From a virus, in IMG/VR virus record IMGVR_UViG_3300044695_003767: 64,000 nt of DNA; one strand, written 5' to 3'. The position numbers and the translations under genes were made by a program. The notes beneath the pieces are model-generated. The model saw nothing but the letters and a program-made list of their open reading frames with translations, searched no databases and was not told the DNA's origin. Below are positions 2,920 to 30,661 of this stretch, in pieces (positions within the stretch are counted from its first letter, which is position 1; every line of letters starts with the position of its first letter).

Positions 2920-3103
2920 TAAAAGAGAACTGGATATTATGTGGACGGTTGCCACATCGACCAGTATTGAAACTGGCACAAGACCCCACTACGGGTTTGC
3001 CAACCTGCTGTATGATTACCTCACAGACAACCTCAAAAACAAATACGGAGTTGAACTCTGCTATGAACCTCAAAGAGAAGAAGGCACTGCTCAAGAAACT
3101 TGA
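2900..3103 (+). CDS. hypothetical protein
   Basis: Tiles; contains a degenerate dyad/promoter copy. Confidence 0.6.
   Translation: MMKTLPDKRELDIMWTVATSTSIETGTRPHYGFANLLYDYLTDNLKNKYGVELCYEPQREEGTAQET
2958..3016 (+). promoter_or_regulatory. dyad + -10 early-type promoter, copy 1 (degenerate)
   Basis: CGACCAGTA-TTGA-AACTGGCAC, 31 nt, TATGAT. Confidence 0.55.
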
Positions 3104-3335
3104 GACTGCCTACAATACCTGTTTTGATTGTGGGAAGAAGTATGGAGTGTATTCTGTAGGATGCTCCTCTGTTTATGAGTCAAAGTGTGGTGTATGTGGT
3201 GAAATCAAACCCATTACGGAGACTCGTGACTTTGCTTATTTCTTTCCTACCATTCGAAAACTGAAACTAGAGATTCAAAATGAGAAGAGTAACAGTCAAA
3301 CCAAAGTCCAGCAAAGCGAAGAACCGTCTTGCTAA
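3063..3335 (+). CDS. zinc-ribbon protein
   Basis: CFDCG...CGVCG. Confidence 0.7.
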   Translation: MNLKEKKALLKKLETAYNTCFDCGKKYGVYSVGCSSVYESKCGVCGEIKPITETRDFAYFFPTIRKLKLEIQNEKSNSQTKVQQSEEPSC

Positions 3336-3495
3336 TACTATGGACAACAATCCTGTTTGTATTGTAGAGCAGGATACTGGTGGTGAATTGTTCCTTGCTT
3401 CCGAAAATCGTAAATACTTTTTTTGGGTTAGCACTCGCACTGGTACTAACCGTTTTGGTGACAAATCTGACGCACATTGGGAGGTTATTGAATGA
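3280..3495 (+). CDS. hypothetical protein
   Basis: Tiles; ATGA overlap downstream. Confidence 0.7.
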   Translation: MRRVTVKPKSSKAKNRLANTMDNNPVCIVEQDTGGELFLASENRKYFFWVSTRTGTNRFGDKSDAHWEVIE

Positions 3496-3773
3496 GTTTT
3501 TCTAAAACTGTTTCTGTTTTTGCTGCTCTTGCAAGTATCTTTGCTGCTGGTGCTACTGGTTGGAAACTTGCAGATTCACAAAAAGAAGTTCCTTTGAGTC
3601 CATTAGACCAAAAGGTGATGGAGTTGGAGAAGAAATTGGACCAAGCACAGCAACCGCAAGTTGCTCCTGAACCAGTAAAACTTCCAGCACCTATCGTTCA
3701 AACACCACTACAACCTAACGTACTTCCTGCTCCAACACCACCTCCTCCTGTTTCCGAAAATGCCACTCCTTGA
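3492..3773 (+). CDS. membrane-anchored Pro-rich protein
   Basis: N-terminal hydrophobic segment, coiled coil, Pro-rich tail. Confidence 0.7.
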   Translation: MSFSKTVSVFAALASIFAAGATGWKLADSQKEVPLSPLDQKVMELEKKLDQAQQPQVAPEPVKLPAPIVQTPLQPNVLPAPTPPPPVSENATP

Positions 3774-3954
3774 TACTCTCAACTACTTCATACAAGACCA
3801 AGAAGGACACCTACAATGTCTTGAATGGGAAATCAGGGATGAAACCAATTATGAGAACAATGACATTGATTGGTATTGTGAACAGTATGATGAAGCAAAA
3901 CAACGAATAGAAGACCTTAAACAAATCAAATCCATTATTGAAGCACAACAATGA
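3760..3954 (+). CDS. hypothetical protein
   Basis: Tiles. Confidence 0.7.
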   Translation: MPLLDTLNYFIQDQEGHLQCLEWEIRDETNYENNDIDWYCEQYDEAKQRIEDLKQIKSIIEAQQ

Positions 3955-4145
3955 CTTACGATCAACTCTACGAGCACATTGTCAACTACATTGCTCAACC
4001 ACTAGATGATAAGCGTCGTGCCTGTCTGATTCTGGGTGCATTTATGGAGTTTAACCTTGATTGTCTTGATGAAGGTGTAGACCCTCGCACTATTGATATG
4101 ACTGGTTTTGTGAATGAGAAACTTGATGAACTGGAGGGCAAATGA
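3951..4145 (+). CDS. hypothetical protein
   Basis: ATGA overlaps both ends. Confidence 0.7.
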   Translation: MTYDQLYEHIVNYIAQPLDDKRRACLILGAFMEFNLDCLDEGVDPRTIDMTGFVNEKLDELEGK

Positions 4146-4402
4146 GATTTCGTGATATTGAGTTCCGTTGGAGTAAATGCAACAACAAGTATGAACTCGT
4201 TAAGTGGTATCAATCTAATGGTTCAGGACAAGAGAACTGCTATGTGATTGCTTTTTTTGATAAAGGCAAAGAGTGTTATGATATGAGAACCATCGGTACT
4301 AGGTTCTTTGAGGATAAAGATGCCTGGGTTGTAGGTAAGTATGGTTTGGAGTTTCTAAATGAAATCTTTGAGATTGAAAGGATTGAAGAGGAACTGAAAT
4401 GA
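4142..4402 (+). CDS. hypothetical protein
   Basis: ATGA overlaps both ends. Confidence 0.7.
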   Translation: MRFRDIEFRWSKCNNKYELVKWYQSNGSGQENCYVIAFFDKGKECYDMRTIGTRFFEDKDAWVVGKYGLEFLNEIFEIERIEEELK

Positions 4403-4650
4403 ATAAGGACGAATACTACGATTGGATTGCCGAAAATGATTCATATCCAGAACATTCTCATAAGTGGATAGTGGGACTTTATACTCCTGATGGTGGTAGA
4501 TTTGATATGCTACACAGATACTTTGGACCTTTTGAAACCAAAGAACAAGCACGGGTATTCGCAGCAGATTATAAGGACAAATACACAAAACCAGGATTTA
4601 TTTCCAGAACCAAAATCTTCCCACTCTGTGAGGTAGTAAAGGACACTTGA
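4399..4650 (+). CDS. hypothetical protein
   Basis: YFGPF motif; stop lies inside dyad copy 2. Confidence 0.7.
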   Translation: MNKDEYYDWIAENDSYPEHSHKWIVGLYTPDGGRFDMLHRYFGPFETKEQARVFAADYKDKYTKPGFISRTKIFPLCEVVKDT

Positions 4651-4698
4651 AGAACTGGCACAGGGCATCTCCACAGGTGCCCTTTTTCGTTGTATAAT
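4640..4698 (+). promoter_or_regulatory. dyad + hairpin + -10 early-type promoter, copy 2
   Basis: AGGACACTT-GAAG-AACTGGCAC, hairpin GGGCATCT/AGGTGCCC + T-run, TATAAT after 31 nt. Confidence 0.85.
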
Positions 4699-4720
4699 GA
4701 CTTTATAAACAAACAAACCA

Positions 4721-5053
4721 ATGACTGAACTTACTCCTGAAGCACAAGCAGTTGTAGATGCCTTCTATCGTGAATTGCCCCCAAACTATCAGCAAGGAGG
4801 TATTACTGCTGCTCTCCGTGCTGCTATTGATAGTGTAGTTCCTGAAGAAGCAGAAGCACCGAGGGCACAGTTTGATTGTCCTCCTCGTAAGTTGTGGTCA
4901 ATCAATAAAGAAAAAGAAAGGTGGGGATATGAGCATTCAGATCATCTGAGGAGGCAGTTTGCTCAAGACAAACTGGATATTCGTTGGGAACAACGACAAC
5001 AAACCCGTGCTTTGATGCTTGCTATTGTCGTTGAACTTGAGAACCTGAAATGA
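4721..5053 (+). CDS. hypothetical protein, small helical paralog family
   Basis: AQAVVDAF...AALRA...AIVVELE resembles 5462/5635/11438 ORFs. Confidence 0.7.
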   Translation: MTELTPEAQAVVDAFYRELPPNYQQGGITAALRAAIDSVVPEEAEAPRAQFDCPPRKLWSINKEKERWGYEHSDHLRRQFAQDKLDIRWEQRQQTRALMLAIVVELENLK

Positions 5054-5226
5054 ACTACCTCTGCCTTGTTGATGGTGTTGTAGAATACGGTAGCACAGAC
5101 CTCTACCAATTCAATCATTATCGTATGGTGTATTACGAAGACCACAAAGATGCTGAAAATGTAGAGTATCTTGTGCTGACTGATGAGGCATACAACGAAA
5201 TGTTCCCTTGTGAGGATGAAGAATGA
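5050..5226 (+). CDS. hypothetical protein (58 aa)
   Basis: ATGA overlaps both ends. Confidence 0.65.
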   Translation: MNYLCLVDGVVEYGSTDLYQFNHYRMVYYEDHKDAENVEYLVLTDEAYNEMFPCEDEE

Positions 5227-5465
5227 CTAAAATCCAACTCAAAGCAATCACAGTTACTTACACCAGAACTCTCACAGTTTCACCCACAACTGAAATGTTT
5301 GAGGACTGGGAGGATTATCCAGACCAAGAAGGATTTGAGAGTTTAGTGCTTAATGAATTGTTTGATAAAATCCATTATGAGATGGGAGGACCCGCAAATC
5401 CTATGCCTTACACTGATGTAAAACAGTTTGAAACCGTTGAGATTGACTGGGAGGGTGAAGAATGA
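5223..5465 (+). CDS. hypothetical acidic protein
   Basis: ATGA overlaps both ends. Confidence 0.7.
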   Translation: MTKIQLKAITVTYTRTLTVSPTTEMFEDWEDYPDQEGFESLVLNELFDKIHYEMGGPANPMPYTDVKQFETVEIDWEGEE

Positions 5466-5638
5466 CTGACGCAGCATACAAAGTTTGGGAAGCATTCAAA
5501 GCAGAATTGATTGTAGAACCCACCGATGATATGAAAGAAGCACTTGCTACTGCTATTCGTGAGATTGCTGACCAACTTTATTTTGACCCTGATGTAGATT
5601 ATCTAAATCGTCTTTCCTATAATGTGGAGGCACTATGA
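5462..5638 (+). CDS. hypothetical protein (58 aa), paralog family
   Basis: ELIVEPTDDMKEALATAIREI shared with 11438 ORF. Confidence 0.75.
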   Translation: MTDAAYKVWEAFKAELIVEPTDDMKEALATAIREIADQLYFDPDVDYLNRLSYNVEAL

Positions 5639-5838
5639 CTGAACGAGCACAAAAGATTATGAAAGCATACGAAGCAGAGGATACTTACAACTTTCCAAAA
5701 GATGGAGTTGTTGCTGTTATTCGTGCTATTGTGAATGAACATCAATACTATCAGTGTTGTAGAGACCAGGATATAGAAGATATGGTAGTTGATGCTCGAT
5801 TGCTTTATGAACTTGCTGATGAATTGGAGGCACTATGA
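5635..5838 (+). CDS. hypothetical protein, paralog family
   Basis: IVNE.QYY...EDMVVDAR.LYELA.ELE shared with 11438 ORF. Confidence 0.75.
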   Translation: MTERAQKIMKAYEAEDTYNFPKDGVVAVIRAIVNEHQYYQCCRDQDIEDMVVDARLLYELADELEAL

Positions 5839-7766
5839 AACTCTACCGATACAAGAAAGACGGACACCTTTATACTCTCTATGAGCAGTTGAGACCATTC
5901 TATAATCTTGTAGCAGTTCCTTATTTTCCCAATCAAGGTATTCTTGCTAAAAGTAAGAGGAGTATTTCTATGGATGATTTTGTGGTGGTTGCTGAACGAT
6001 GACTGACGAAGAATGGGAAACCACACTCAAAAGTATGAATGAGAATGTGAAGAAGTGGGTGAATGAAGAAATTGATAAAATTAAGTATAGTATCATCAAA
6101 GACATTATTGACAAAGAACTCAAATGAAACTTTTTATCTTTACTCTCATCATTCCACTTCTTATCATTACTGGTTATTTCCTTTCTATGGAACTACTGAA
6201 TACTTACAATACTCAAAAGGATAGGGAGATGTTCTTGAAATCTTATGAGATTGTGTTAGAATGTAGAAAGTCTTATAATGTGATTAATTCCGCAACTAAC
6301 ATTTGTGGTGAAGTTCCTGTATTTGTGGATGCTGTAAAATGAAAGTTTATTCACTCTATCACAACGAAACTTATGTTGCTTCCTTTCCAAATAAGGAAGA
6401 TGCTGTTTTCTATGGTAAGCAATTCTATGAGGATGGATGGTCTTGTAATATTATTGAAGAGTATTTGAGTAAATCTGCACCACTTTATAGCACTCCTTAT
6501 ATTCCACCTGCTTCAAGCACTACTCCTACTATTCACAAGATAGATTAGGATAATAGAGTAGAAGGAGTTGATTATTGATTATGACTGAACCAACCGACGA
6601 ACAAATTGATGAACTTTGGGATGAGATTGGAGGGTATTACAATCTTTATCCCGAAGTTAGAAATACTATTCGTGAAGCACTTCATCGTTGGGGAAATGTG
6701 GAGGATGAAGAATGACTTACGAAGTTCAAACTTGGGATGACACAGATAAAACTGTGTATTATGAAACCGTAAAGGATGCTATTGATTATGAGAATGCTCG
6801 TGATATAATTGTAGAGAAGTATCCAAACCGTAAAGTAATTGCTGTAATTAGAAAATGACTGAACCATTAAATCACAAACTTGATATAAGTAAAATCAAAA
6901 CCCTCAAAGATGTAAAGAATGTCTTTGAGTGTATGAATTTGTATGCTTCTGCTGAAGAAGGTTACGAAAAGTATGAACTTCTCAAAGAATACTTTACGAT
7001 CCCAAACGAACCACAAGAAATCAAATTTGAATTACCACGCAAGTCATTAGAAGAAATCTCACAAGAGTTTGATGAGAAGATTGATTACCTTTTGGTGAAA
7101 ACCCAAAGAAAGTTTGCCGTATCCAAAGAAACTGCCGAACATTTTTATAATCACAAGTTCAATAGGATTATTGAGAACTTTGAGTATGCGAAAGAACACG
7201 GACAATTCCCAGTCAGACTTACAATAGGTAATTTAGATTGTTCTACTCTTGGTGTGAGCAGTGCTGTAGATTGGAGCACAGAGTTTAGAATTGGTAAAGA
7301 TGAGGTAGGATACTGGAACATCAAACCAAACATCAAAGTGTATCTGAAAAAGAAACCAAATCGTGTTGTGAGATACTTTACTAAACTACTTCTTGATTTT
7401 ACTTGGAAAGATAAATGACTAAACTATCAGCAGCAGACCTTATGGTAATTCATAATACTCTCTATAAAAGTTTGAGTGTCGTTGGAAATAGTATTTGGAC
7501 ACAAGAAACCAGAGAAAGAGTTATGGATAAGGTGTCTATTATTATGGAAAATATGAACGCAGAAGTTGTCTGTGGTGATGTAGAACCTATTGTAGTGAGT
7601 GGAGATGTTGGTGGATAGTATTGAAGAACTCCAAAAATACTTGGATGACCATAACATTACATTTGAAGAGTATATGAGAGCAAATATGATTACTGATGAA
7701 GAACGGAAATATATTGATAAGATATGGATGGATGCGATTTATAAGAACTTGGGTGAGGACACTTGA
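5835..7766 (+). other. run of small hypothetical CDSs (5835-6002, 5999-6127, 6124-6342, 6339-6548, 6581-6715, 6712-6858, 6855-7418, 7415-7618, 7611-7766)
   Basis: Nearly continuous tiling, mostly ATGA overlaps. Confidence 0.65.
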
Positions 7767-7813
7767 AGAACTGGCACAGGGGATGCTCTGGGTGTCTCTG
7801 GATGCCTTATAAT
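7756..7813 (+). promoter_or_regulatory. dyad + -10 early-type promoter, copy 3
   Basis: AGGACACTT-GAAG-AACTGGCAC (identical to copy 2), TATAAT after 30 nt. Confidence 0.85.
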
Positions 7814-7836
7814 ACTCTCATACACACAGACACCTG

Positions 7837-10800
7837 ATGACTGAACAAGAACTTATTGAACTCTGGGGTAATGGAACCCAGTTTGGAATGAATACTCTTG
7901 GTGCTGGTGTTATGACTGGTGCTATGAATAATGCCTTTCGTGAGGTTGCTGTAAAGTTTGCTCTTGTAGTTGCTGATAAAGCATATGGTATTGGTTATGA
8001 TATTGGAGCAGGTGATGAGTATGATAGGGGATATGTTGATGGTGTGGAAAGTGTAAGGTCTGGTGTTCTTGGAGATTGAAATGACTGCCTTCAATTACAA
8101 AGGATACGGACGCATCTACACCAATTCAAGGAACATTCAAAATGTAGAAAAAATCATTCAAGAACTTGATGAGTTTGAGTGGGGTTATTATCCAGGAGGT
8201 CTCGTAGCATCTTGGGATATGTATCCAAATGTAGAGTATATTGGTAAGTTTGAACTGAATGAAGACAAGTTCAAACAAATCTGTAAGGAACGAAACATTC
8301 CTGTTTTTGTCTTTAATGCTTATGATAATGAGTATCCTCGTGGTTATGTCAAAACTTTGAATAGAGAAGAAATCAAACAACTTTCTTATGGAGAACTGAA
8401 ATGACTGAACGAGTAAAATTCAAAACTATCACACGAGTGATTGACCCAAAGACACGCATTCATTATCTAGATGCTGTTGATGAGAATGGATACCACTGGA
8501 CTGCCGAAATGTCACCACACGAAGAGAGATGGTTGTGCTATACTGATGTATGGAAAAAAGACCCCCAGCAGCCCTATGACCTTTAATTATGAAAGACCTT
8601 GAACTCGGACAAATGATTTTTGGCAATCCCACAGAGGAATATAGTGTTCCTCGTGAGAAATGGATGGGTGGTCCATTCCAAATCTTGATTGATGCGATTA
8701 CAGAAAAGACAGGAGAAAAAGATTATGGATATACTCCACATTTCTCCAACGATTTTTTCATCATCCGTCCTTATTATTGGGGTGATGAAGAAGATGAAAT
8801 GGATAAACCTAACTTTGAAATTCCAAGTGAAAACTTTCGTTTGACTTGGTATAAGTATCCTTTTAGGAGTTCTTATGCGAGTGAGAAACTTACTCCGAAG
8901 AGGTGGAATGCCCTTATTCAAAAATGTATCAAGAGTTTGGAAGAATGACCCTTGAAGAAATCCTAGAAGAATACGGACAGGAAGTATTAGACACATACTA
9001 CGAACTGTTCCCAGACAAAAACATCTCAAAGTTTGGTGATAGGTGTTGTGGATTTGTTGGTGAGTATCAGGATTTTGTGTTAGACTGTTATCATTCAACT
9101 GGTAGTGATGAACTGGAAACACTTGAAGAGTTTATGAATGGTGTATTTCAGGAGTATTATTACTACTGCGAAAAAACAGCAACAGGATTTGTATTTTATA
9201 ATGAACGATGATTAAAGAAGAACTCAAAGCAATCTTGTTTATTCTTGGATTATTGCTACTTTTAGGAATACTCACATCATTTACTACTGATTATCAAAAA
9301 ACAAAATGTTTGGAAGACGGTGGTAGGTGGATTAGTGGATTTGTAGGTGGAAATTGGACTTATTTTTGTTTGCCGAAATGACCAAACATCCTACATCAGA
9401 ATGGGAGTGGGAAGACACTGCCGAAGTCGCATTTCAGGAATGGTTTAACGACCTTTATACTCCTTATACCTTTCGTTGTGAATGGTTCTATGGAGATTGT
9501 GCCGTAGAAGACCTGAAAACCCGTGAGGATTTGTTGAGAAAGTGGTTGCATTCTGCCTTCTTGACGGGTTATAATACTGGTAGATGCTCCAAGACCGATG
9601 AGTGACCTAATCTTCTACACAAATGGTGAGGAAACATATCGTATTTCTCCTCCAACTATTGGAACCAAGTGCCCTGAAATGAAACTTGAAATCAAAATGA
9701 CTGAAACTGACATCTCAAAAGTTCTCATAGAAGGAGAATATGCAACCATTATGGGTGTGAAATATAAGAGAGTGGAAGAACCAAAATCACCAGTAGAAGA
9801 AGCATACAAAGAGTGGTGGGGACAATATCCTGAATTGGAAACTGATTCCAAGTATGATGATATGAGGTGGCAGGGTTTCCAAGCAGGTTATGAACTAGCA
9901 CAAGTAAAAGATGGGTGCCCTGAACCACCTGATGAACCAGATTATTATGATGAAGTTGAATGGGATGAGAAAGACAACTCAAAACCTATGGATGAGGTTG
10001 TGAATAGGTTGGTGAAAAAATACGAAGCACAAAAACTTTTTAATAGATTGGTAGATGAACTTGGTTATGATTTTGATGCTTGTAATGATGTTGTAGATTT
10101 GGTAGAAGATTGGTTGCCGAAAGAACAATCAGCAGCAGGAAGTCAAAATGTAGATACTGAATTGCTTGTTGATGGATTTAATGATTGTTTGCGTAAAATC
10201 AAGGGGATGCTACGATGACTGAACGCAACTTTGCCAAAGAACTTTGCCATCACCGCTATATTGATATGGAGGATGGGAATGATACTGAAACTATTTGCTA
10301 TCCTTCTTTGATTTGTATTATCACCGAGTTGTGTGATAGAATAGAGCAACTGGAGAAGGACAACGAACTTCTGAAATCTTATGCTTGGGAACAATGAACA
10401 ATGATATGCCTTGGGTCAATCTCACCCAAGAAGAAGTAGAAGAACTCCGCAACAAAAAGCACACACTCACCGAATATGGCAGAGAACAACTGAAACGACT
10501 TATGATGAACCAAGAACCTTATCCTGACGAATTTTTTGAGGAAGCAGAACGTCGTGAGAAGAGTAATCGTATTCTGCAACGATATAATGACTTTCACAAT
10601 CTTGAAACTTCTGGACTTCCTCACGGCACACCAATCACACCAGAGCATCAGCAGATTATTGCAATGGAAAGTATGATTGATGCTATTCGTTGCGAGTATC
10701 TCAATCGGGAGTATAATCATATTGCGATTGAAGATATTGAGGATTTGATTGAACGACTTCGTGAGCAAGCAACTGCATTTCTTGAACGAGTGAGGCAGAA

Positions 10801-11096
10801 CAATGACCGATAAACCATTCTATCGTTTCTTTGCGATTGATTATTGTGCAACTGGTGAAGGTCGCTCTATTTGGTTAATGATCTGTCGTTATGACCTTGA
10901 TGGAGAAAGAGATTATGAGTATGAAAGATTTGCAAACTTTGTTAATTATGATCATTACCTACACGGATTTGATGAACTTACAGAGCGAGAGTTTCTGGAT
11001 AAGTATACGAGATTTATTCCTCACCTGATTGCTAATATGTTACAAAAGAAAACTATCGGAACTTGGCAAACTCATTTGCATTTTAATCTCAGTTAA
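7837..11096 (+). other. run of small hypothetical CDSs (7837-8079, 8081-8404, 8401-8586, 8589-8948, 8945-9211, 9378-9605, 9598-10218, 10215-10397, 10394-10813, 10803-11096)
   Basis: Tiled + strand ORFs. Confidence 0.65.
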
Positions 11097-11152
11097 GACA
11101 CTTACCAAACTGGCACACCCACACACCACAGACCCACAAAATACCCTATAAT
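11095..11152 (+). promoter_or_regulatory. dyad + -10 early-type promoter, copy 4
   Basis: AAGACACTT-ACCA-AACTGGCAC, C/A-rich spacer without hairpin, TATAAT after 30 nt. Confidence 0.8.
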
Positions 11153-11177
11153 ACACCCATAAACACCCATTATTGTG

Positions 11178-11441
11178 ATGACTTTCCAACCCTACAACAT
11201 TGTTCCTGGAACCGACATTCTTCATAGTTTGACTGATGTTTATGAATTTTGTGATGAAGTAGAAGGAATGACTTATCGTGTAGAACTCAATGCTGATAAT
11301 GGTGGAGTTTACATTAAGTCCAGTGAAAAAGGACACGAAGAAGGTTCTAAAAACATCACCGAAGATATGTCTATCGGCAACAAACAACTTTCCATCGTTG
11401 TTGCTCGTCGTATTCTTGAACTTTATGGAGAACTGAAATGA
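11178..11441 (+). CDS. hypothetical protein
   Basis: First gene after promoter copy 4. Confidence 0.7.
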   Translation: MTFQPYNIVPGTDILHSLTDVYEFCDEVEGMTYRVELNADNGGVYIKSSEKGHEEGSKNITEDMSIGNKQLSIVVARRILELYGELK

Positions 11442-11638
11442 ATACAAAAGCACAAACAATCTGGAAAGTATTTTGTGAAGAACTGATTGTAGAACCCACA
11501 GATGATATGAGAGAAGCACTTGCGACTGCTGTTCGTGAGATTGTGAATGAGTTTCAATACTATCACTTTGGTGATGGTGAAGATATGGTAGTTGATGCTC
11601 GTGTTCTTTATGAACTTGCGGAGGAACTTGAGAAATGA
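11438..11638 (+). CDS. hypothetical protein, mosaic paralog
   Basis: N half matches 5462 ORF, C half matches 5635 ORF. Confidence 0.75.
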   Translation: MNTKAQTIWKVFCEELIVEPTDDMREALATAVREIVNEFQYYHFGDGEDMVVDARVLYELAEELEK

Positions 11639-12166
11639 ACGACGAAAAGAACCCTGATGAGATTGTCGTCAGGGACATTGATATGATACACTTTGAGATG
11701 ATGGATGATGGATTCCTCTGGTGCGGAATCTATCATAAGAATGGGCAGATTGACCACTTCAATATCACTGCAAAGAAAAACAAACTCTCTACACTCTGGA
11801 TGCCTAATTGTGGATAATACTATGAGATTTGAAAACCCAACAAAATGGGAACTTTTCCTTGATGGATTTCGTAATGTCCTGTATATTCTTGACTGTTATG
11901 ATGACGGTGATGAATGGGGTTATGGTGAGTTCTGGGAATCGTTGAGTATTGGATGGATGCAGATGGAAATTTATCCTTATGATGACCCCTACAACCTAAC
12001 TATCAGTCCAGAACGTAGGTTGAGATTAGGACAAGAACCAGAAAGGATTATTGTATCCGCAGAAGCATATGATGAACTTGTGCGACGAATCAATGAACCA
12101 CAAGACCCTGCTGTGGTGGAAAGAATTAAAGAACTTATGAGTCGCAAAGCACCGTGGGATGATTGA
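11635..12166 (+). other. two hypothetical CDSs (11635-11817, 11822-12166)
   Basis: Tiled ORFs. Confidence 0.6.
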
Positions 12167-13690: not shown

Positions 13691-13858
13691 CGACACGAAA
13701 TTTTATTGATAAAAACGGAAACTCTTGGGAATGGGAAGAAACTCCTGAAACTGTTGAGGCACTCAAACAACTTCATGGAACTGTAAAAAAAGCAAATGAA
13801 ATTAAGTTTGCTGGTAATTATCCTGGTCCTCTCTATGCTCCGCATCCAGATATAAAAA

Positions 13859-14368: not shown

Positions 14369-14376
14369 AACATAAT

Positions 14377-19522: not shown

Positions 19523-19546
19523 ACAAAGGTAATCAAGGGAACCACG

Positions 19547-20769: not shown

Positions 20770-20777
20770 CCTATAAT
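20720..20777 (+). promoter_or_regulatory. dyad + hairpin + -10 early-type promoter, copy 9
   Basis: TGGACACTT-CGCA-AACTGGTCT, TATAAT after 30 nt; TATAATACAAAGGTAATC shared with copy 8. Confidence 0.75.
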
Positions 20778-20801: not shown

Positions 20802-22662
20802 ATGCAACTGTCTACCTTCTCCAAGATCGACGGCAAACCCTCTATGGTCGTTGATTACTTCCCTGTCAAGAACAGTACCAAGTTTATGTTCAAGGTGCTC
20901 AAGTTTCAAGGTGTTGATACGATGTCCTACAAGTGCATCACCAAACGTGACTTTGAACGTGAAATGAATGAACGCATTGGTATGGGTTGGGAAGTGACTG
21001 GTTTCAACACTGAAGAGAAAAATGTCAACCCGATGGCAGGTGCAGTTTGATGAAACTACGTTATCTTGTTTTGGGTGGAATTGGGTGCATAATTGGATTG
21101 AATGTGTTTCTCATCCAACGTGATGCAGAACTGTTCAAGGCATATGATGCCTGCACTCAGTCCACTCAACATCCCGATTGCCCGTATAAAAAATGAACGA
21201 CGAAGACATCAAACAATTTATGACTGCCTTTGAGGATTTTATGCAACACTCCGAAATCAAACAATTCAATCATAATGCCTGGACTGCTGCTAAGCAATAT
21301 ACTGATCATTACTATGAACAAAAAGCTGCAGAACTAGAGGTGACTGTCGATTATTATATTCAAGAGTTTGTATGAATGAGCAAACCAAATTGATTCTAGC
21401 ACTAATGCAGATTGATAATCTTACCTCTCTGACTGAAGGTAATGAGTATCAAAAATTCCTGTATTCTCATTTAATTCAAATTCAAGTTGAACTACAACGT
21501 CAGTTGACAAATCTGAATCATTCATCTAAAATTAAGGAGTAATTTTTCAAAAGAAATGAAATCACTTTATATCGTTGATTACTGGGTGCCGTTTCCTTCA
21601 AGTGAGTATGGTGGTGTAATCAATCTAATTGCTGAGTCTGATACTGAAGCATTTTCTATTTTGTCGCAGTCAAGTATCTATGATGAAAATTATATTGATC
21701 GCATTATGCCCAATGTAGTCAGTGCCCAGAAGTTTTCTCTTGTAGATGAGTATGAGTCTGGCATCATTGATTCATTTACTACCTGAGAACTATGTCCGAA
21801 ACACTGTATCGAATTGAAGAGTATTGTACGACTGGCTGGGCACTCATTGATTCTCATCAAGTAAAACTGACTAAAGAACAATGTAAAGAACAACTGGATA
21901 TGTATCTTGCTCAAGGTCATAATCCTCAATATTTGAGAGCTGTTCCTGATGGCAATTGAGTTTCCACATAAAGCACCCAAAGGAATGTATTATGAGCAAA
22001 CTGAGTTTAAACGCAATGTTACTGCTATCTGGATTCACTATAAGTGTAAGTTTGATTACAATCTTGGTGATCCAGTTCGTTGTATCTGGGGATTCTACAA
22101 TACTAAAACAAAACAATACCACGCACCAATCAATTCAAAGACAGTGGGTGATGTAGTAAGTATTCATAATACAACACCATATTCTGCAATGATTCCTAAG
22201 CAAACTGTATTGGAGTCTTGCTTTGTATGAGTTACATTCCAGAAGTTAATCATTATGTAAAGTGGAAATCACACATTGAAGGGTGGATTTACTTCAAGGA
22301 TAAGGAATATATTACGATAGAAATTGGAGTCAAACCAAAAGATGAAGAGAATTACGAAGCGTGTTCAATTCATCGCAATGATCGTTTGATGGTGCTGTGT
22401 TATCATAACCAATGGAAAGAATTAAAATATATAAAGTCTAGACAATCAAGATATGAAAAAAAAGAAAACACTGTGGAGATTGTGGGCGAAATCTATTGGG
22501 GAGAAGGCATCGAAAAATGACAGAGAAGCAGACCACGTTGCTCATATACGGACTGTTATATTTCTCACTTATCTCATTACTAATCTTTTTATTGTTGCAG
22601 GGGTCGTAAGACATTGGAACGACATTGAGTATCAACAACCCGTGAATCATGGACAAATATAG
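20802..22662 (+). other. run of small hypothetical CDSs (incl. 20802-21050, 21193-21375, 21556-21786, 21949-22230, 22227-22520, 22453-22662)
   Basis: Tiled ORFs. Confidence 0.6.
21504..21532 (+). promoter_or_regulatory. sigma70-like promoter
   Basis: TTGACA-17 nt-TAAAAT followed by AAGGAG. Confidence 0.7.
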
Positions 22663-23776: not shown

Positions 23777-25045
23777 ATGCCAGTTAATACAACACAGACA
23801 AAGTATTTTCAGAATATTGGACCAAGTGCAGATTCTCTGAGTTTCAGTACAATTGCCTCTACATTAGGAAACTCTTCGACGAACATTCGATTTGGTGATT
23901 ATCGAAGAAAGACAAGTGCAAATGAAGTATTTGTCGATGTAAGTGCCAGTGCAGAACAAAAACTTGCACAGACTGGTATTGTACCTGATTCAATTGAAAA
24001 TCAGACTTGTGGTGTCGATGGAAACGGAATTACGACACTGAACGATCATAAGATTTCCAGTCTGAAGAATATGATCAAACGTTATGATGTATCCTATACT
24101 GGAAACACATCCAGTCAAATTGACATTAGCCCTGGTGGTGGAACGATTGCAGATAACTGGGCAACAAATATTGATTTGAATGTACCAAAAAGAGTCACCT
24201 TTGATAGTTCGACACTAAAGGCAAGTACAACATCAGAACACGCTGTCGTGTTTAGTGGTTCGGCACTAAATTTAGATCTAACGTTCAATGCCACACAGGT
24301 TCTGGGAAGAGAAGGAGTTGGTGGAACAAAGGCAACTGCCAATACATCTGCGACTGGTGGTGGTGCTGGTGGTGGTGCATTGTATCTGAGAAATACGACA
24401 TCCAGAACATCTGGAAATGCGTCTACAATTAATCTAACTCTCAACAATACTGCACTGATTGCTGGTGGTGGAGGCGGTGGAGGTGGTGGTGCCACAGGAA
24501 CAGTTAGTGGTACGACTCAATGCACCAATTACAATGATTATTCTTATAATAACAATTATTGGGCTTATCTTTACGGTGGATGTCCAGTTGCTTGTGATAG
24601 TGGTGATACTCAATTAGCCTGTAATTATAGCAATGATATTCGATATTTCCGTGGTACGGGTGGATTTTCTCAGGGTACTTGGTATTCCTATCCCTGGACA
24701 GTCACGTGCCGTAAGTTTATCACCACCGACAATGGTGCAGTTGCAGCAGCATCTGGTGGAGATGGTGGTGTTGGTCAAGGATCAAACAATGCCAATGCAG
24801 GTGTTGGAGGTAATGCAAGTGGTGCAGCATCACTAAATTGCCCTGGTGGTACTTATGCCCAGAATGCAACATCGAATACGACTGCTGGTGTTGCTGGTGG
24901 AGATGGTGGAACCTATGGTCTTCCTGGTGGAAATACAAATGTAGCCAATGGTGGATCTGCTGGTCCTTGGTTGAATGTATCTAATACACGATGGGCAAAC
25001 AGAGGTGCATCAGGAGCACTTGTACAAAGAGTCAATACTATTTGA
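23777..25045 (+). CDS. Gly-rich tail-fibre tip / gp38-like adhesin
   Basis: VLGREGVGG, GGGAGGGALYL, NNTALIAGGGGGGGGG match gp38-type Gly-rich motifs; late-like CTAAATA at 23740. Confidence 0.65.
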   Translation: MPVNTTQTKYFQNIGPSADSLSFSTIASTLGNSSTNIRFGDYRRKTSANEVFVDVSASAEQKLAQTGIVPDSIENQTCGVDGNGITTLNDHKISSLKNMIKRYDVSYTGNTSSQIDISPGGGTIADNWATNIDLNVPKRVTFDSSTLKASTTSEHAVVFSGSALNLDLTFNATQVLGREGVGGTKATANTSATGGGAGGGALYLRNTTSRTSGNASTINLTLNNTALIAGGGGGGGGGATGTVSGTTQCTNYNDYSYNNNYWAYLYGGCPVACDSGDTQLACNYSNDIRYFRGTGGFSQGTWYSYPWTVTCRKFITTDNGAVAAASGGDGGVGQGSNNANAGVGGNASGAASLNCPGGTYAQNATSNTTAGVAGGDGGTYGLPGGNTNVANGGSAGPWLNVSNTRWANRGASGALVQRVNTI

Positions 25046-25070
25046 CATTTAATTCGATTGTTGATAGAAT
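25042..25070 (+). promoter_or_regulatory. sigma70-like promoter
   Basis: TTGACA-17 nt-TAGAAT with extended TG. Confidence 0.7.
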
Positions 25071-26312: not shown

Positions 26313-26370
26313 ACATTCTCAATAAGGTGTAATTAATTGAGAATCAATAGTGTATTATAGTTGAGAATAA
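26313..26370. repeat. ~58-bp core with three ATTCTCAA boxes; inverted copy of 27120-27176
   Basis: Aligns with the reverse complement of 27120-27176 with few mismatches and indels. Confidence 0.8.
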
Positions 26371-26518
26371 GTCTTATACTTGTATTTTATAAGTGTGATA
26401 AAACCTTATAAATGCCTCTGAGACTTGTGTTCATAAAGTCTTTTAAATGTTTATAAATGCCTCTGAGACTTGTATTTTATAAGTGTGATAAAACCTTATA
26501 AATGCCTCTGAGACTTGT
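26361..26518. repeat. 45-bp-period array: 23-bp repeat x3 (+1 degenerate) with 22-bp spacers
   Basis: TTATAAATGCCTCTGAGACTTGT at 26406, 26451, 26496; degenerate at 26361; first and third spacers identical. Confidence 0.92.
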
Positions 26519-26533
26519 GAGTTTAGTCCGCGC

Positions 26534-26563: not shown

Positions 26564-26598
26564 CCCCCCACGAGATTTGCTACGAGACCCACACATAT

Positions 26599-26856
26599 CT
26601 CGACGAGAATTATAATCATATCTTAACATTTCTCGACGAGAATACATATATATCATTATGAGACTCGACGAGATTGTGCATCATAAGGGCTTGCAAACTC
26701 GTCGAGATCGTGCTACACTATAACAGTCATCAATCATTCTCGACGAGCATTATGTACGACGACTACGATCTCGACTACTCTTTCAGTAACGATTACAATC
26801 TCGACGAGGACTCATACTACGAGCATTATGTGCAAGGTGATGCGAACCTCGACGAG
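26599..26856. repeat. array of 9-bp dyads CTCGWCGAG
   Basis: Copies at 26599, 26632, 26664, 26698, 26739, 26800, 26848. Confidence 0.88.
26691..26719 (+). promoter_or_regulatory. sigma70-like promoter with CTCGTCGAG in spacer
   Basis: TTGCAA-17 nt-TACACT with extended TG. Confidence 0.6.
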
Positions 26857-26943: not shown

Positions 26944-27096
26944 ATGATAGCACAGAAGCGTATCGTACAGGTTACACTAGATATCATGTGTTATGATGAT
27001 CTAGACCTAGATGATATTAACTGGCGTGAGTTATTGCAACTCGAACCAGGTGAAGATGTCCATTGTAAGGTACAAGAATTCGATATCGATTGGTAA
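26944..27096 (+). CDS. hypothetical protein (50 aa)
   Basis: MIAQKRIVQVTLDI...; stop abuts dyad copy 10. Confidence 0.65.
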   Translation: MIAQKRIVQVTLDIMCYDDLDLDDINWRELLQLEPGEDVHCKVQEFDIDW

Positions 27097-27199
27097 TGTG
27101 CCAGTTTGTAGATTGGCACATATTCTCAATTAGTAATACTTATTGATTCTCAATAACAAGATCTTATTGAGAATATGTGACAGTCGGAGAACTGGCACA
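27097..27199. repeat. 103-bp imperfect palindrome containing dyad copies 10 (27098-27119) and 11 (27177-27198)
   Basis: Symmetric about 27148; arms TGTGCCAGTT-N4-GAYTGKCAC-ATATTCTCAAT; centre TTATTGA-TTC-TCAATAA. Confidence 0.88.
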
Positions 27200-27235
27200 A
27201 GACCCATTGCATACGTGATATCTCCGTGCCATACT
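27177..27235 (+). promoter_or_regulatory. dyad + -35/-10 early-type promoter, copy 11
   Basis: GTGACAGTC-GGAG-AACTGGCAC; TTGCAT-17-CATACT. Confidence 0.85.
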
Positions 27236-27286
27236 ACATTCGTGGTTGAGAAATTCTCTACATTCTCTTCCAACCACGAAAATATC

Positions 27287-27535
27287 ATGAAACTCTTTGC
27301 CTCGAAATTCTACCAAACTCTGGTGCTAAATGTTGCCACGATTGCTGCAATTGTCGTGGGTTTGTATCAGTTTGCTGTTCGTGCCTATGTTGAAAACAAC
27401 GGGGCAGAAAAGACCCGCAAGGTGATTCAAACTGTTCTGCAGTTCGTTGATACTATTGTTGGGCAATTGCAAGCGTTGGTTGATACCGATGTGCCAGTTG
27501 TGAAAGTGGCACAGAAAACTACCAAACGTTCCTGA
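27287..27535 (+). CDS. small membrane protein
   Basis: One TM helix; 3' end contains dyad copy 12. Confidence 0.65.
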   Translation: MKLFASKFYQTLVLNVATIAAIVVGLYQFAVRAYVENNGAEKTRKVIQTVLQFVDTIVGQLQALVDTDVPVVKVAQKTTKRS

Positions 27536-27548
27536 TTCCTGCTAGTTT
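27491..27548 (+). promoter_or_regulatory. dyad + -10 early-type promoter, copy 12
   Basis: GTGCCAGTT-GTGA-AAGTGGCAC, TAGTTT after 30 nt. Confidence 0.8.
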
Positions 27549-27570
27549 ACATTCGTTCCTGAGATTTCCG

Positions 27571-27774
27571 ATGATTTTTCTGACTTCTACCAATCACGGT
27601 TGTGTGTATACTTTGGGACAAGAAGATGGGGATGAGTTGTATTATGCCCCAATCTACACCAACGGTACAGTAAATCTCGAAGAATTTGCTCCTGTTGATA
27701 TGAATGAAATTGATATGGATGATATGGAAGTGTTTGATATCATTCGTCGCCTTAAAGTTATGAATGAGGTGTGA
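27571..27774 (+). CDS. hypothetical acidic protein, one-gene cassette
   Basis: Between dyad copies 12 and 13. Confidence 0.7.
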   Translation: MIFLTSTNHGCVYTLGQEDGDELYYAPIYTNGTVNLEEFAPVDMNEIDMDDMEVFDIIRRLKVMNEV

Positions 27775-27829
27775 CGGTCTGACAAGTGGCACACACCCCC
27801 TTGCGGTTCTGATTAATCCGTTCTACATT
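27771..27829 (+). promoter_or_regulatory. dyad + -35/-10 early-type promoter, copy 13
   Basis: GTGACGGTC-TGAC-AAGTGGCAC; TTGCGG-17-TACATT. Confidence 0.8.
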
Positions 27830-27852
27830 ACATTCGTTCCTGAGAGATTTCA

Positions 27853-28333
27853 ATGTTTGATGAACTCTGGTCTGAGATTCAAGATGCTCCTGGTGAGATC
27901 TTCGATATGGACATTCCCGAACTTCGTGATACTGAGAAGTTCGATGTCAATGAGTACCTGAACGCAAACTACGATTACTGATGAACACAATCAGTCGCCA
28001 ACATTGGGACACTCTTTATACCAAACTCTACGATGCGTATGAAGAGTGTTCTAAGAATTATGATGAAACTTACCGACAAAAAATCGGTATGATTCTTGAC
28101 CACATGATTTACAATCAACCCCACCTTAACATCAAATGACTGACACCTTTGACCGTGATTCTCTCATTGCTGATTATGCTCAGCAGATCCTAGATGGGAT
28201 GGATATGAAAACAATGGAGTGTTTCGTTTATGATACTTTGAAGGATAATCTTTCGTCCTATTCTGATGAGGAATTGATTGCTGAGATTACAGAATACAAT
28301 CCCGAACTGCTGGAGGATGTGACAGTCGGATAA
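27853..28333 (+). other. three small CDSs (27853-27981, 27981-28139, 28136-28333)
   Basis: TGATG/ATGA overlaps. Confidence 0.65.
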
Positions 28334-28377
28334 GTGGCACAAGGGGGATTGCAAAGTCCCCCGATCTGATCCATACT
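28319..28377 (+). promoter_or_regulatory. dyad + hairpin + -35/-10 early-type promoter, copy 14
   Basis: GTGACAGTC-GGAT-AAGTGGCAC; GGGGGATT-GCAA-AGTCCCCC hairpin; TTGCAA-17-CATACT. Confidence 0.85.
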
Positions 28378-28402
28378 ACCTTTGTTGAAACGAACGACAC
28401 CA

Positions 28403-28624
28403 ATGAGCACCGCAACTTACAACGGTTGGGCAAACTACGAAACCTGGAATGTTGCTCTGTGGATTCAGAATGATGAGGGTTTGTATAACATTGCCCGTCG
28501 TTATGATGATTATCTTAAGTTCGTAAAGCACATGTGGTTTGATGCTACAACTCCCGATGGGGTTAGCTACACTGATCCTAAACTTGATTGGGATGAACTG
28601 AATGAAATGATGGCCGATCTCTGA
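28403..28624 (+). CDS. conserved phage protein (YNGWANYETWNVALW)
   Basis: Recognisable phage motif. Confidence 0.75.
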   Translation: MSTATYNGWANYETWNVALWIQNDEGLYNIARRYDDYLKFVKHMWFDATTPDGVSYTDPKLDWDELNEMMADL

Positions 28625-28660
28625 CCTTAAGTAACACTTACCAATCACAACATTTGACCA

Positions 28661-28828
28661 ATGCCTGACATCACTCCCATCGTTGATCTATTTTATCATC
28701 TGCCTGAGGGTACTGGTAAGGTCCTCCTGCTGTTTGCTCTTGCTATGGGCATCGGGGTCATGATCACCGTCAAGGTGAAGGGTAGTTTGAGCAATGCCGA
28801 CGATTTCATTTGGTGGGACGATCTCTGA
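28661..28828 (+). CDS. small membrane protein (55 aa)
   Basis: One TM helix; stop inside dyad copy 15. Confidence 0.6.
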   Translation: MPDITPIVDLFYHLPEGTGKVLLLFALAMGIGVMITVKVKGSLSNADDFIWWDDL

Positions 28829-28873
28829 ACTGGCACACTGAGACCCCAGATCCGACTTCCGACCCTGTAGACT
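28815..28873 (+). promoter_or_regulatory. dyad + -10 early-type promoter, copy 15
   Basis: GGGACGATC-TCTG-AACTGGCAC, TAGACT after 31 nt. Confidence 0.7.
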
Positions 28874-28879
28874 GAAAGC

Positions 28880-29785
28880 ATGAAAAACACCCACCTTGAG
28901 CACCCTGAAGATACCATCCTCACGGGTGATCTTTCTGTCCTGGATTGGTTTGTAACTCCTGGCACTTTGTCTGTTAAGATAGACGGTGCTCCCGCAATTG
29001 TGTGGGGAATTGATCCTGCAACTGGTACATTTTTCGTTGGCACTAAAGCAGTGTTCAACAAGAAAAAGATTCGTATTGCTCACAATCATGAAGAGATTGA
29101 TCAATTCTACGATGGAAATGTTGCAGAAATTCTTCACTCTTGTTTTGATTGCTTACCTCATACAGACACCATTTATCAGGCAGACTTTATCGGGTTTGGT
29201 GGATCTACTGAATACAAATCCAACACCATCACCTATCAGTTCCCTGAGGTAGTTTCTCAGCAAATTATCATTGCACCTCACACCTGCTATTATGCTGAGA
29301 ACGATCTGCGTGATGCTCAGGCATTCCCTGATCGTGCAGTCTGGAATGATACCGAATCGGTCAAATATGTGAAACCGAATGCATACATTCTGCACGGTCA
29401 AACGTCCTTTGCCGATGTTGATGAGATCTGCAAATTTGCCCGTCAGATGGCAACCACTGTGACCTTTGTAACTGATAAGGAAGCAGCAAAGATCAAACAA
29501 CAACTTAATGCCTGCATTCGTGCTGGTGAACAGATCAGTGTAGAGAGTGTGAATGAGTTTGATTGTGATCCTAACCTGATTCGTTTGTGGGCATTGGTGA
29601 AGTCGATCAAAGATGATTGTTTGTTCCTGTGCCGCAATGATGGTCCCGCAGCATACATCGGGCACAACAGAATCGATGCCGAAGGTTATGTGATGACCAA
29701 TGAGTTTGGTATGTTCAAACTGGTGAATCGTGAGGTCTTTTCTTATCACAATTTCAACTCAGGTCGTTTCCAGTGTGCCAGTTGA
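28880..29785 (+). CDS. RNA-ligase-like nucleotidyltransferase (DUF6267-like)
   Basis: HLEHPED, motif I KIDG, EGYV, FKLV. Confidence 0.65.
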   Translation: MKNTHLEHPEDTILTGDLSVLDWFVTPGTLSVKIDGAPAIVWGIDPATGTFFVGTKAVFNKKKIRIAHNHEEIDQFYDGNVAEILHSCFDCLPHTDTIYQADFIGFGGSTEYKSNTITYQFPEVVSQQIIIAPHTCYYAENDLRDAQAFPDRAVWNDTESVKYVKPNAYILHGQTSFADVDEICKFARQMATTVTFVTDKEAAKIKQQLNACIRAGEQISVESVNEFDCDPNLIRLWALVKSIKDDCLFLCRNDGPAAYIGHNRIDAEGYVMTNEFGMFKLVNREVFSYHNFNSGRFQCAS

Positions 29786-29833
29786 GGAAGTGGCACAAAC
29801 CCCCTAGACCTGCCCCCCATCCCGTGCCATACT
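29775..29833 (+). promoter_or_regulatory. dyad + -10 early-type promoter, copy 16
   Basis: GTGCCAGTT-GAGG-AAGTGGCAC, CATACT after 31 nt. Confidence 0.85.
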
Positions 29834-29914
29834 ATGTTCATCAGGGGGGAGGAAGGAGAACCCCCCAAGGGCAGAGGTGAGGACTGCCCATCCCATTTCA
29901 ATCGCAATTGCCAA

Positions 29915-30232
29915 ATGCGTAAGATCGAACGTCTGATGAATGCTGCTATCACTGCAGGCAAAGATTTCAAAATGGCAAACACTGAGGTTGTTTCCTGCAG
30001 CAACGTTACCGATGTCTTTCTGCACGGTAATTTGATTGCCCGCATTGGTGAAACCTGGATTGAACTTTTCGATGGTGGGCATCAAACTGTCACCACCAAA
30101 TCCCGTCTCAATGCTATTCTGCGTGAGCACGGTGTTGGTGATGAGAGTGTGTTTCAAAAGAACTTTCAATGGTTCTTTCACTCTAATCAATTCGGCACAA
30201 TTCCGTTCTTCTCTGGTATGCGTCTGAACTGA
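29915..30232 (+). CDS. conserved phage early protein
   Basis: MRKIE...VFLHGNLIA...GGHQTVTTKSRLNA. Confidence 0.75.
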   Translation: MRKIERLMNAAITAGKDFKMANTEVVSCSNVTDVFLHGNLIARIGETWIELFDGGHQTVTTKSRLNAILREHGVGDESVFQKNFQWFFHSNQFGTIPFFSGMRLN

Positions 30233-30290
30233 ACATCTGTCCTGGTGATGACATTAAACTCACCGCAACTTTCATTCCTTTCTGTCACAA

Positions 30291-30607
30291 ATGATCCGAT
30301 ACGAAGTTCGTTATCAGACCCCATACAATCAGTGTGAATGGAGGTCGCAATGGTTTAAGACTTTGGATGAGGCAGAACGTATGGTTGAGTTCTATCGATC
30401 CTGCGGATCTCCTGCTCACCTGGCACCCTAAACTTTTCCCCCTTCGTTAACACTTACTTCGTTTCTAAAATGACTTTCGAACTTGCAATCTCCCTGCTTC
30501 GTCAAGGTGACAATGGGGAGCAAATCCTGCAGATTCTTGATACCATCGCAACTGATGATGAACAGGGAACTGTAACAGATCTGCAGGGCAATCCTGTTAT
30601 CTGGTGA
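30291..30607 (+). other. two small CDSs (30291-30431, 30470-30607)
   Basis: Open frames between promoter copies; second stop inside dyad copy 17. Confidence 0.6.
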
Positions 30608-30661
30608 CAGTTGATAAGGTGTCCACGATTCTCCCCGTGGGCACCTTTTTTGTGCAATACT
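30604..30661 (+). promoter_or_regulatory. dyad + terminator-like hairpin + -10, copy 17
   Basis: GTGACAGTT-GATA-AGGTGTCCA; AAGGTGTCCACG/CGTGGGCACCTT + T-run; AATACT after 30 nt. Confidence 0.7.

Follow-up and report, generated by a model that had tools for sequence, protein, structure and literature searches.

A 22-bp dyad in promoter units of T4-like cyanophages recurs at cyanobacterial Yfr2 promoters: host PlmA as a candidate activator

Introduction

Infection by T4-like cyanophages is lethal for a large proportion of the main primary producers in the ocean. These phages lack Alt, ModA/B, MotA and AsiA, with which T4 reprograms the polymerase of its host, and the switch-on of their early genes has been described as unresolved (PMC2984593). 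Sigma-70-like motifs are known upstream of early-gene homologues in S-PM2 and Syn9, early control in cyanomyoviruses being regarded as unclear (PMC2984593). Here we analyze a 64,000-nucleotide stretch of the virus record IMGVR_UViG_3300044695_003767 (referred to as the window; positions are counted from its first letter), which carries 17 copies of a 22-bp dyad. The dyad consists of a distal half-site GTGMCAGTT and a promoter-proximal half-site AASTGGCAC in inverted orientation, four nucleotides apart.

Three described systems come close to this element. For early genes of Syn9 and P-TIM40, Doron et al. in 2016 (ISME J 10:1437) reportedly presented a 'novel regulatory element', which is said to lie upstream of small early genes and to be neither T4-type nor plain sigma-70, reportedly with no binding factor named. 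CGRE1, in turn, is a palindrome of 21–22 nt upstream of yfr2 in Prochlorococcus and marine Synechococcus with GTTG (or GTTA) flanks 13–14 nt apart, on which the GntR/PlmA-family protein PMM1637 was recovered by pull-down and confirmed by electrophoretic mobility shift assay (PMC6191309, Lambrecht et al. 2018). CGRE1 was called restricted to picocyanobacteria, and phages are not mentioned (PMC6191309). MED4 has one GntR regulator, PMM1637 (PMC6778093).

The promoter/stem-loop (PeSL) cassettes of T4-type coliphages and vibriophages (Arbiol 2010; Comeau 2014, PMC4122927) resemble the dyad units as repeated terminator/promoter composites in hyperplastic regions that bracket small ORFan genes. For PeSL, indel breakpoints between close relatives fall within the repeated unit; of the ten events described below for the window, three touch a dyad unit. 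A PeSL consists of a near-consensus -35/-10 pair with a stem-loop upstream and no activator dyad (PMC4122927), whereas the dyad units lack the -35, carry the hairpin between dyad and -10, and conserve a putative regulator site. The dyad units fall outside the PeSL definition with respect to the -35 pair (2 of 17 reach 10 of 12 matches) and differ from it in the position of the stem-loop. No cyanophage is treated in the PeSL paper (PMC4122927).

Sequence and distribution of the dyads

All 17 dyads listed in an original prediction, which had been made from the letters of the window, are present. A pattern search allowing up to three mismatches recovered 13 of the 17 places, compared with 0.07 matches expected from shuffles. 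A position weight matrix (PWM) gave 18–33 bits to its own copies and no more than 8 bits to any other position of the 64 kb, both strands included; as the matrix was made from these same 17 copies, the separation is circular in part. Since nothing else exceeds 8 bits, there is no dyad beyond 30.6 kb, in agreement with the predicted absence from the structural region, and the units are confined to the small-gene region. The weakest copy (2958, 19 bits) is internal to an open reading frame (ORF), with the nearest start codon more than 70 nt away. A 58-nt inverted repeat has dyads 27098 and 27177 as its two arms, which suggests a back-to-back promoter pair.

The two arms of the dyads are complementary at only four to eight of nine positions. 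In ten copies the variable S positions 7 and 16 are occupied by C/C or G/G, in eleven copies an A at position 4 faces G, and the promoter-proximal half is much better conserved than the distal one. That the arms do not covary argues for a protein site and not a hairpin. Together with the better conserved proximal half and the fixed spacing to the -10 this bears out the predicted site of a dimeric protein: the dyad is best read as the two-fold-symmetric site of a dimeric DNA-binding protein, centered near -53.5. By visual inspection, the sites of NtcA (GTA-N8-TAC) and CRP (TGTGA-N6-TCACA) as well as the sigma-54 -24 element (TGGCAC) were rejected on account of their spacing and because a -10 box is present.

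Architecture of the promoter unit

A -10 hexamer 29–31 nt downstream had been predicted for sixteen copies, and all sixteen boxes were confirmed on the + strand: TATAAT (eight times), CATACT (three times), TATGAT, TACATT, TAGTTT, TAGACT and AATACT. For the remaining copy (27098), which has no box on the + strand, the minus strand offers TACAAT at a distance of 30 nt; with this box counted, the spacing holds for 17 of 17 dyads. The eight perfect TATAAT boxes belong to the block 4640–20720 and seven weaker, CATACT-like boxes to the block 27177–30604. The start codon follows the -10 at approximately 17–26 nt in most units. Taking the -10 as positions -12 to -7 places the dyad at about -64 to -43, close to the predicted range of -65 to -43. 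A -35 is missing in all units except two (4640 and 17254), which reach 10 of 12 matches with their -35.

The stop codon of the upstream gene is contained in eleven dyads, one more than predicted; of the remaining copies, most of which had been placed in the last codons, only two (19465 and 20720) are found there. Stable GC hairpins occur in seven to eight of the 17 30-nt spacers (-10 to -18 kcal/mol, compared with -3.8 ± 2.6 kcal/mol for random 35-mers of the region). They separate the dyad from the -10 rather than preceding a -35, and three of them are terminator-like (4662–4683, 18170–18184 and 30616–30647). The predicted composite of stop, terminator and promoter was recovered in this form: a unit has the stop codon, in many cases a hairpin, and the -10 box. 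From their sequence and spacing, the dyad units appear to be a real and strongly non-random promoter class.

Conservation runs past the promoter into the 5' untranslated region. Leaders between -10 and ATG recur across phage genera (ACTCTCATACRCAACCAAMCG, ACAAAGGTAATCAAGGGAAC, AAGAGTCAAAGAAA and ACATTCGTTCCTGAGA); they are found in the window at 7808–7830, 18379–18399, 19523–19546 and 30662–30687, and elsewhere in S-PM2 (9854 and 5077), S-SRM01 (57328 and 78817) and Syn9 (48559).

Occurrence in other cyanophages

The novelty that the prediction had allowed for the element did not hold up, as the dyad is common to many T4-like cyanophages. A pattern search with up to three mismatches found it in S-PM2, Syn9, S-SKS1, S-SRM01 and S-RSM4, and 12 times in G001, a 29.7-kb IMG/VR fragment that is the nearest record to the window; the reversed-pattern control gave 0–1 hits. 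PWM scans of these phages resulted in a common layout of dyad, ~30 nt, -10, ~24 nt and ATG, with entire leaders common to different genera. In Syn9, dyads with a -10 at ~30 nt are located at 48559, 51001, 51212 and 148743, before gp73, gp78, gp79 and a DUF6267 gene. When IMG/VR was scanned for the exact pattern, at least 120 stretches proved to carry the dyad, with up to five exact copies in 5–6 kb. In the 120 stretches listed, a strong -10 is found at 29–32 nt for 147 of ~187 exact dyads (~79%; 84 at 30 nt and 48 at 31 nt), compared with ~2 at each other offset. The dyad with its -10 is a general feature of T4-like cyanophages.

At homologues of several of the downstream genes in other genera the dyad ends 57–61 nt before the start codon; other homologues have no dyad. 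The kept distance points to selection on position.

A full-text literature search, which did not reach Doron 2016 and Mann 2005, found no published description of the dyad motif. The dyad of the window is probably the Syn9 early-gene element that Doron et al. reportedly described in 2016. The window is then a fresh instance of an element that is common to many T4-like cyanophages and has probably been published already.

The dyad at host Yfr2 promoters

Among 185,579 species genomes scanned, the exact dyad was present at no fewer than 120 loci, 80 of which were listed by name; ~13 of these 80 are cyanobacterial and the remainder mostly from Acidobacteriota. At five of the cyanobacterial loci listed, Rfam Cyano-1, the family of the small RNA (sRNA) Yfr2, starts ~41 nt after the dyad in the order dyad, 31 nt, TATTAT, ~6 nt, RNA. 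Across the phylum, the dyad ends 37–42 nt before the RNA at ~20 of 35 Cyano-1 genes, with the proximal half again better conserved. Five cyanobacterial genomes, all non-picocyanobacterial, contain 27 dyads at up to two mismatches (2–7 per genome), compared with one hit for the control. Cyano-1 was not found in three genomes of 1.6–2.0 Mb in the phylum sample, which are probably not picocyanobacteria.

In non-picocyanobacteria the Yfr2/Cyano-1 upstream dyad has the same sequence as in the phage, GTGNCANTT-N4-AANTGTCAC, and the same distance of 30–32 nt to the -10. As in the phage, its proximal half is the better conserved one, and it often lies just past the stop codon of the upstream gene. The host Yfr2 promoters mostly retain a TTG-type -35 in the spacer, whereas all but two of the phage units lack a -35, and the few copies per host genome compare with 17 in 28 kb of the phage. 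The same dyad in the same register at host promoters argues that the phage element is the upstream element of a host promoter class, apparently copied in both sequence and register. We know of no earlier description of the dyad upstream of non-picocyanobacterial Yfr2/Cyano-1 promoters.

At two Nostocales loci (L076 4977 and L098 2775) the dyad and a -10 precede a second conserved transcript starting ...GCAAGGAGTGATACCACTTCAC, and at two sites of Mojavia (L069) yet another transcript. Further PlmA-controlled small RNAs are possible at these places.

PlmA as a candidate binding protein

The Yfr2 promoters were surveyed in 40 genomes of the Cyanobiaceae, the family of genome G148 (1.0–3.9 Mb, Prochlorococcus/Synechococcus-like); genomes with G numbers are placed by their size, GC content and family sampling. 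Their Cyano-1 upstream elements, CAACTGTCAC-N-GTGACAGTTG (with T as spacer CAACTGTCAC-T-GTGACAGTTG), AACTGTCAC-A-GTGACAGTTG and AACTGGCAC-T-GTGCCAGTTG, fit the description of CGRE1. Letter for letter these are the two half-sites of the phage, but they are everted and 1 nt apart, where those of the phage are inverted and 4 nt apart. Elsewhere among picocyanobacteria, yfr2 promoters show (A/G)GGACAGTT, 4 nt and a degenerate second half, which is the register of the phage dyad. CGRE1 and the phage dyad have in common the identical 9-bp half-sites (AACTGKCAC / GTGMCAGTT), the palindromic length of 21–22 nt and the position upstream of a -10-driven promoter. They differ in that the half-sites of CGRE1 stand back to back, 1–2 nt apart, with the center ~6 nt further upstream. 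The equation of CGRE1 with the everted palindrome is based on the wording of the paper, not on its figure. In the arrangement of the half-sites the phage dyad and CGRE1 do not agree; the inverted arrangement is, however, present in front of yfr2 in other cyanobacteria. A reading of CGRE1 as GTTR...YAAC, which has the wrong orientation, was rejected; its 27 hits in 401 cyanobacterial genomes were close to the control count, and the inspected hits were coding.

A GntR-family gene of 321–335 amino acids starts within 52 bp of an exact dyad at seven of the 120 genome loci listed, all from Acidobacteriota (L084 7351, L110 3279, L124 4316, L174 7097, L162 1340, L082 7318 and L123 7622). The dyad at the starts of these PlmA-like genes reads GTGACAsTT-N4-AAsTGTCAC, and its position would be the classic place for the regulator's own operator. 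Over 300 residues the Acidobacteriota protein shows 27% identity (E 5e-23) to the sole clear GntR match (E ≤0.001) of a 1.8-Mb Prochlorococcus-like genome, and this latter protein is 51% identical end to end to its Tolypothrix counterpart. The phage dyad has the half-sites of the bound CGRE1 and is associated with the yfr2 target as well as with PlmA-like genes.

Exact dyads are also found between genes at numerous further places in Terracidiphilus, Pyrinomonadaceae and Bryobacterales. The Acidobacteriota sites suggest a PlmA-type regulon outside the cyanobacteria; to our knowledge, the PlmA family is said to be exclusive to them.

A tblastn search with three PlmA proteins found no PlmA homologue in the window, S-PM2, Syn9, S-SRM01, G001 or 120 kb of S-SKS1 (no hit below E 0.3), which favors a host factor over a phage-encoded one. 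The prediction had left the activator unidentified, as either a host or a virion-delivered protein. Host PlmA is now a candidate on the grounds of the CGRE1 half-sites and the Yfr2 register, and the lack of a PlmA gene in the phages argues against the phage-encoded option.

The upstream site could nevertheless be occupied by a protein other than PlmA, either a different regulator of the host or a protein of the phage, injected or synthesized very early, the likeness to the Yfr2 promoters then reflecting a common factor. A DNA-binding protein of this kind could hide among the ~100 small ORFs of the window, since Pfam and PHROGs were uninformative even on the 20 largest; moreover, the picocyanobacterial PlmA site is everted. 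We regard such a protein as unlikely, however. The identical dyad stands at host promoters of phage-free genomes, so a factor found only in phages is not needed, and both the agreement of the half-sites with the published PlmA site and the PlmA-like genes abutting the dyad in Acidobacteriota speak for PlmA, which is a well-supported candidate for the binding factor.

Gain and loss of genes at the units

The window and G001 are collinear at 87–99.7% identity, with ten indel or replacement events between them. At 19517–19526, G001 contains an extra unit of 1.08 kb (leader, gene, second dyad and spacer), and the join is located in the shared TATAATACAA. At 7808–7826 it contains an extra 300-bp gene, joined in TATAATACTCTCATACACA. 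The third homology block, a 74-bp island, begins 3 nt before dyad 7756. The remaining seven events are found at ordinary gene borders. Of the cassette exchange that had been predicted, two clean one-cassette indels and one block starting at a dyad stand. The dyad itself does not emerge as the junction, as the crossovers lie in the -10/leader and seven of the ten events are elsewhere. The joins in the shared -10/leader suggest that this repeated segment, and not the dyad, acts as the recombination substrate, in the manner of a PeSL, a reading that is partly supported. Direct evidence for gain and loss of cassettes at the units is modest.

The same crossovers, together with the homology island that begins at a dyad, would fit a unit that serves chiefly in mobility or recombination, as the PeSL of cyanophages, with transcription as a secondary role. 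So would the confinement of the units to the hyperplastic small-gene region and the finding that some phages have the unit ahead of a given gene while others lack it there. This explanation is improbable, since the crossovers lie outside the dyad and most events are elsewhere. Furthermore, the dyad is also a host promoter element without a link to shuffling, and any repeated sequence of 15–20 bp would recombine as a by-product. We return below to the units as promoters.

The individual units

The units are on the + strand with the exception of cassette 10. Cassette 1 (2958–3016) has the weak dyad CGACCAGTATTGAAACTGGCAC, a 31-nt spacer and TATGAT; it lies within an ORF without a nearby start codon. 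All units of the following block have TATAAT as their -10. Cassette 2 (4640–4698) contains the upstream stop in its dyad and the terminator-like hairpin 4662–4683, with the ATG at 4721. Cassette 3 (7756–7813; ATG 7837) has hairpins next to its dyad, and its -10/leader is the crossover of an indel relative to G001. The spacer of cassette 4 (11095–11152; ATG 11178) is C/A-rich and unstructured, and the unit belongs to an 822-bp segment missing from G001. Cassette 5 (17254–17312; ATG 17338) has a strong hairpin and precedes a gene homologous to S-PM2 g016, whereas cassette 6 (18141–18197; ATG 18221) has the terminator-like hairpin 18170–18184. At the S-PM2, S-SKS1 and S-SRM01 homologues of the gene behind cassette 7 (18320–18378; ATG 18400), the dyad ends 58 nt before the start. 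The dyad of cassette 8 (19465–19522; ATG 19547) is located in the last codons of an SprT-like gene, and its -10 is the crossover of the 1.08-kb one-cassette indel relative to G001. Cassette 9 (20720–20777; ATG 20802) combines a degenerate dyad with a hairpin.

Cassettes 10 and 11 are the left and right arms of the 58-nt inverted repeat. Cassette 10 (27062–27119, minus strand) comprises the dyad 27098–27119, a 30-nt spacer and TACAAT at 27067–27062; cassette 11 (27177–27235) comprises the dyad, CATACT and the conserved leader ACATTCGT. A consensus dyad, TAGTTT and the leader ACATTCGTTCCTGAGA make up cassette 12 (27491–27548; ATG 27571), and the same leader (ACATTCGTTCCTGAGA) follows the dyad and TACATT of cassette 13 (27771–27829; ATG 27853). 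Cassette 14 (28319–28377; ATG 28403) has a strong hairpin and CATACT. Cassette 15 (28815–28873), with TAGACT, precedes a DUF6267 gene of 301 amino acids (ATG 28880), whose S-SRM01 and Syn9 homologues also have the dyad. Cassette 16 (29775–29833) has a consensus dyad and CATACT, the real start of the downstream gene being probably near 29915. In cassette 17 (30604–30661; ATG 30688) the right half of the dyad is part of the terminator-like hairpin 30616–30647, followed by AATACT and the leader AAGAGTCAAAG, which is also present in Syn9.

Genomic setting and further sequence elements

The window belongs to a divergent T4-like cyanomyovirus, in which an ORFan early region is followed by baseplate and neck genes. 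Its first 33 kb have a GC content of ~0.40 and densely packed small ORFs on the + strand, with a function known for almost none of them; ~100 small ORFs are without an assigned function. From 34.4 kb onward the GC content is ~0.30 and T4-type baseplate and neck genes are found, namely gp6-like (start 34385), gp8-like (start 49410), gp14-like (start 60597) and gp15-like (start 62063) genes. Two giant ORFs of 4348 amino acids (36318–49364) and 2480 amino acids (50978–58420) among the baseplate genes presumably encode gp7-like or fiber-like structural proteins. The best matches of the gp14 are from the cyanomyoviruses S-SKS1, S-SRM01, S-T4 and P-SSM2 at ~50% identity, and a 170-bp stretch matches g016, an 'ORFanage' gene of S-PM2. 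The sharp fall in GC content at ~33000–34400, from ~0.40 in the small-gene region to ~0.28–0.30 in the structural genes, hints at an accessory block of different origin or codon regime.

A search of the window against Rfam matched no family, and a tRNA search found none. For the 20 largest ORFs, Pfam and PHROGs gave nothing informative and nothing DNA-binding beyond one weak match below the cut-off. This match is a C-terminal MazE/AbrB-like (SpoVT-AbrB) one in an ORF of 199 amino acids (15380–15979; E 1e-4, below the Pfam cut-off), the sole hint of a DNA-binding fold among the larger ORFs.

Four + strand promoters without a dyad (21504–21532, 25042–25070, 31536–31564 and 32405–32433) have near-consensus -35/-10 elements (11 of 12 matches). 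They make up a second class in this region, host-like in kind, and might be of another temporal class. A perfect TTGACA-18-TATAAT promoter is located on the minus strand at 26563–26534. In a gene-poor stretch at 26598–26809 the palindrome TCTCGNCGAGA occurs six times (0.32 expected), approximately 30–60 bp apart, and several copies directly precede ATTATAAT-like boxes. A 45-bp tandem repeat of 3.2 copies (26378–26519) has CTTATAAATGCCTCTGAGACTTGT in its consensus and differs in sequence between the window and G001. Near it, ATTCTCAAT/ATTGAGAAT palindromes are found at 26317–26370 and 27122–27176.

Proposed mechanism and its meaning

Based on the architecture of the units and their host counterparts we propose the following mechanism, which we consider rather probable. 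The phage units would be activator-dependent promoters for host RNA polymerase, the dyad an operator of the PlmA subfamily of GntR, and the -10/leader segments would recombine. Each unit would be an early-type promoter with a -10, no usable -35 and a 22-bp symmetric protein site near -53.5. On balance we favor host PlmA as the borrowed activator, since the phages lack such a regulator: a PlmA dimer on the dyad would recruit or stabilize host RNA polymerase at promoters without a -35. The dyad coincides with the stop codon of the gene before it or stands just ahead of that codon, and about half of the spacers form a GC hairpin, which suggests that a unit serves to end the preceding message as well. 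Homologous recombination between the repeated -10/leader segments may add or delete single gene cassettes. From the sequences we infer all three of PlmA binding to the phage sites, activation by this binding and early timing.

Several points weigh against the proposal. The published picocyanobacterial PlmA site is everted with a 1-nt spacer, and we infer PlmA binding to the inverted form with its 4-nt gap; the phages use this inverted form only, with no everted copies beyond chance overlaps. The 'GTGATCAC-like middle' of the CGRE1 description fits an everted palindrome imperfectly. Five small or GC-rich cyanobacterial genomes, of which only G148 is placed in Cyanobiaceae, show no enrichment of the complete phage-type dyad; all hits there have three mismatches, are fewer than in the control and are not at yfr2. 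GntR proteins are usually repressors, and the acidobacterial sites overlap the gene start, as for an autorepressor. Regarding the recombination step, only three of the ten indel events touch a cassette, the cassettes making up ~4–5% of the region compared.

A role of the dyad as a hairpin, in RNA or in single-stranded DNA, at the upstream gene's 3' end (terminator, stabilizer or nuclease site), with an incidental distance to the -10, is hardly credible. This near-palindrome is indeed transcribed as the tail of the upstream message and overlaps stop codons, but its arms pair weakly and without covariation, and we reject the reading. In addition, a variable GC hairpin distinct from the dyad is already present downstream of it, hundreds of copies keep their distance to the -10 within 2–3 nt, and the same element precedes host sRNA genes.

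For the proposed PlmA-dependent promoters the biology of the regulator is of importance, as PlmA is tied to the PII-PipX nitrogen/carbon and light-stress network. Tentatively, cyanophages may start their program by capturing host PlmA, which otherwise drives the sRNA Yfr2, so that early transcription would be gated by the state of the host, and the many operator copies on replicating phage DNA may also titrate PlmA, drawing it off its host targets. The inverted operator with its 4-nt gap may, on the same tentative view, be ancestral and pan-cyanobacterial, kept by the phages and rearranged in their picocyanobacterial hosts. The cassette indels show a route by which ORFan regions gain and lose genes, one promoter unit each. 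With PlmA as a named and purifiable host candidate, the early switch-on of T4-like cyanophages becomes an experimentally approachable question; if the proposal is true, phage early transcription would be joined to the host circuit for nitrogen and light stress.

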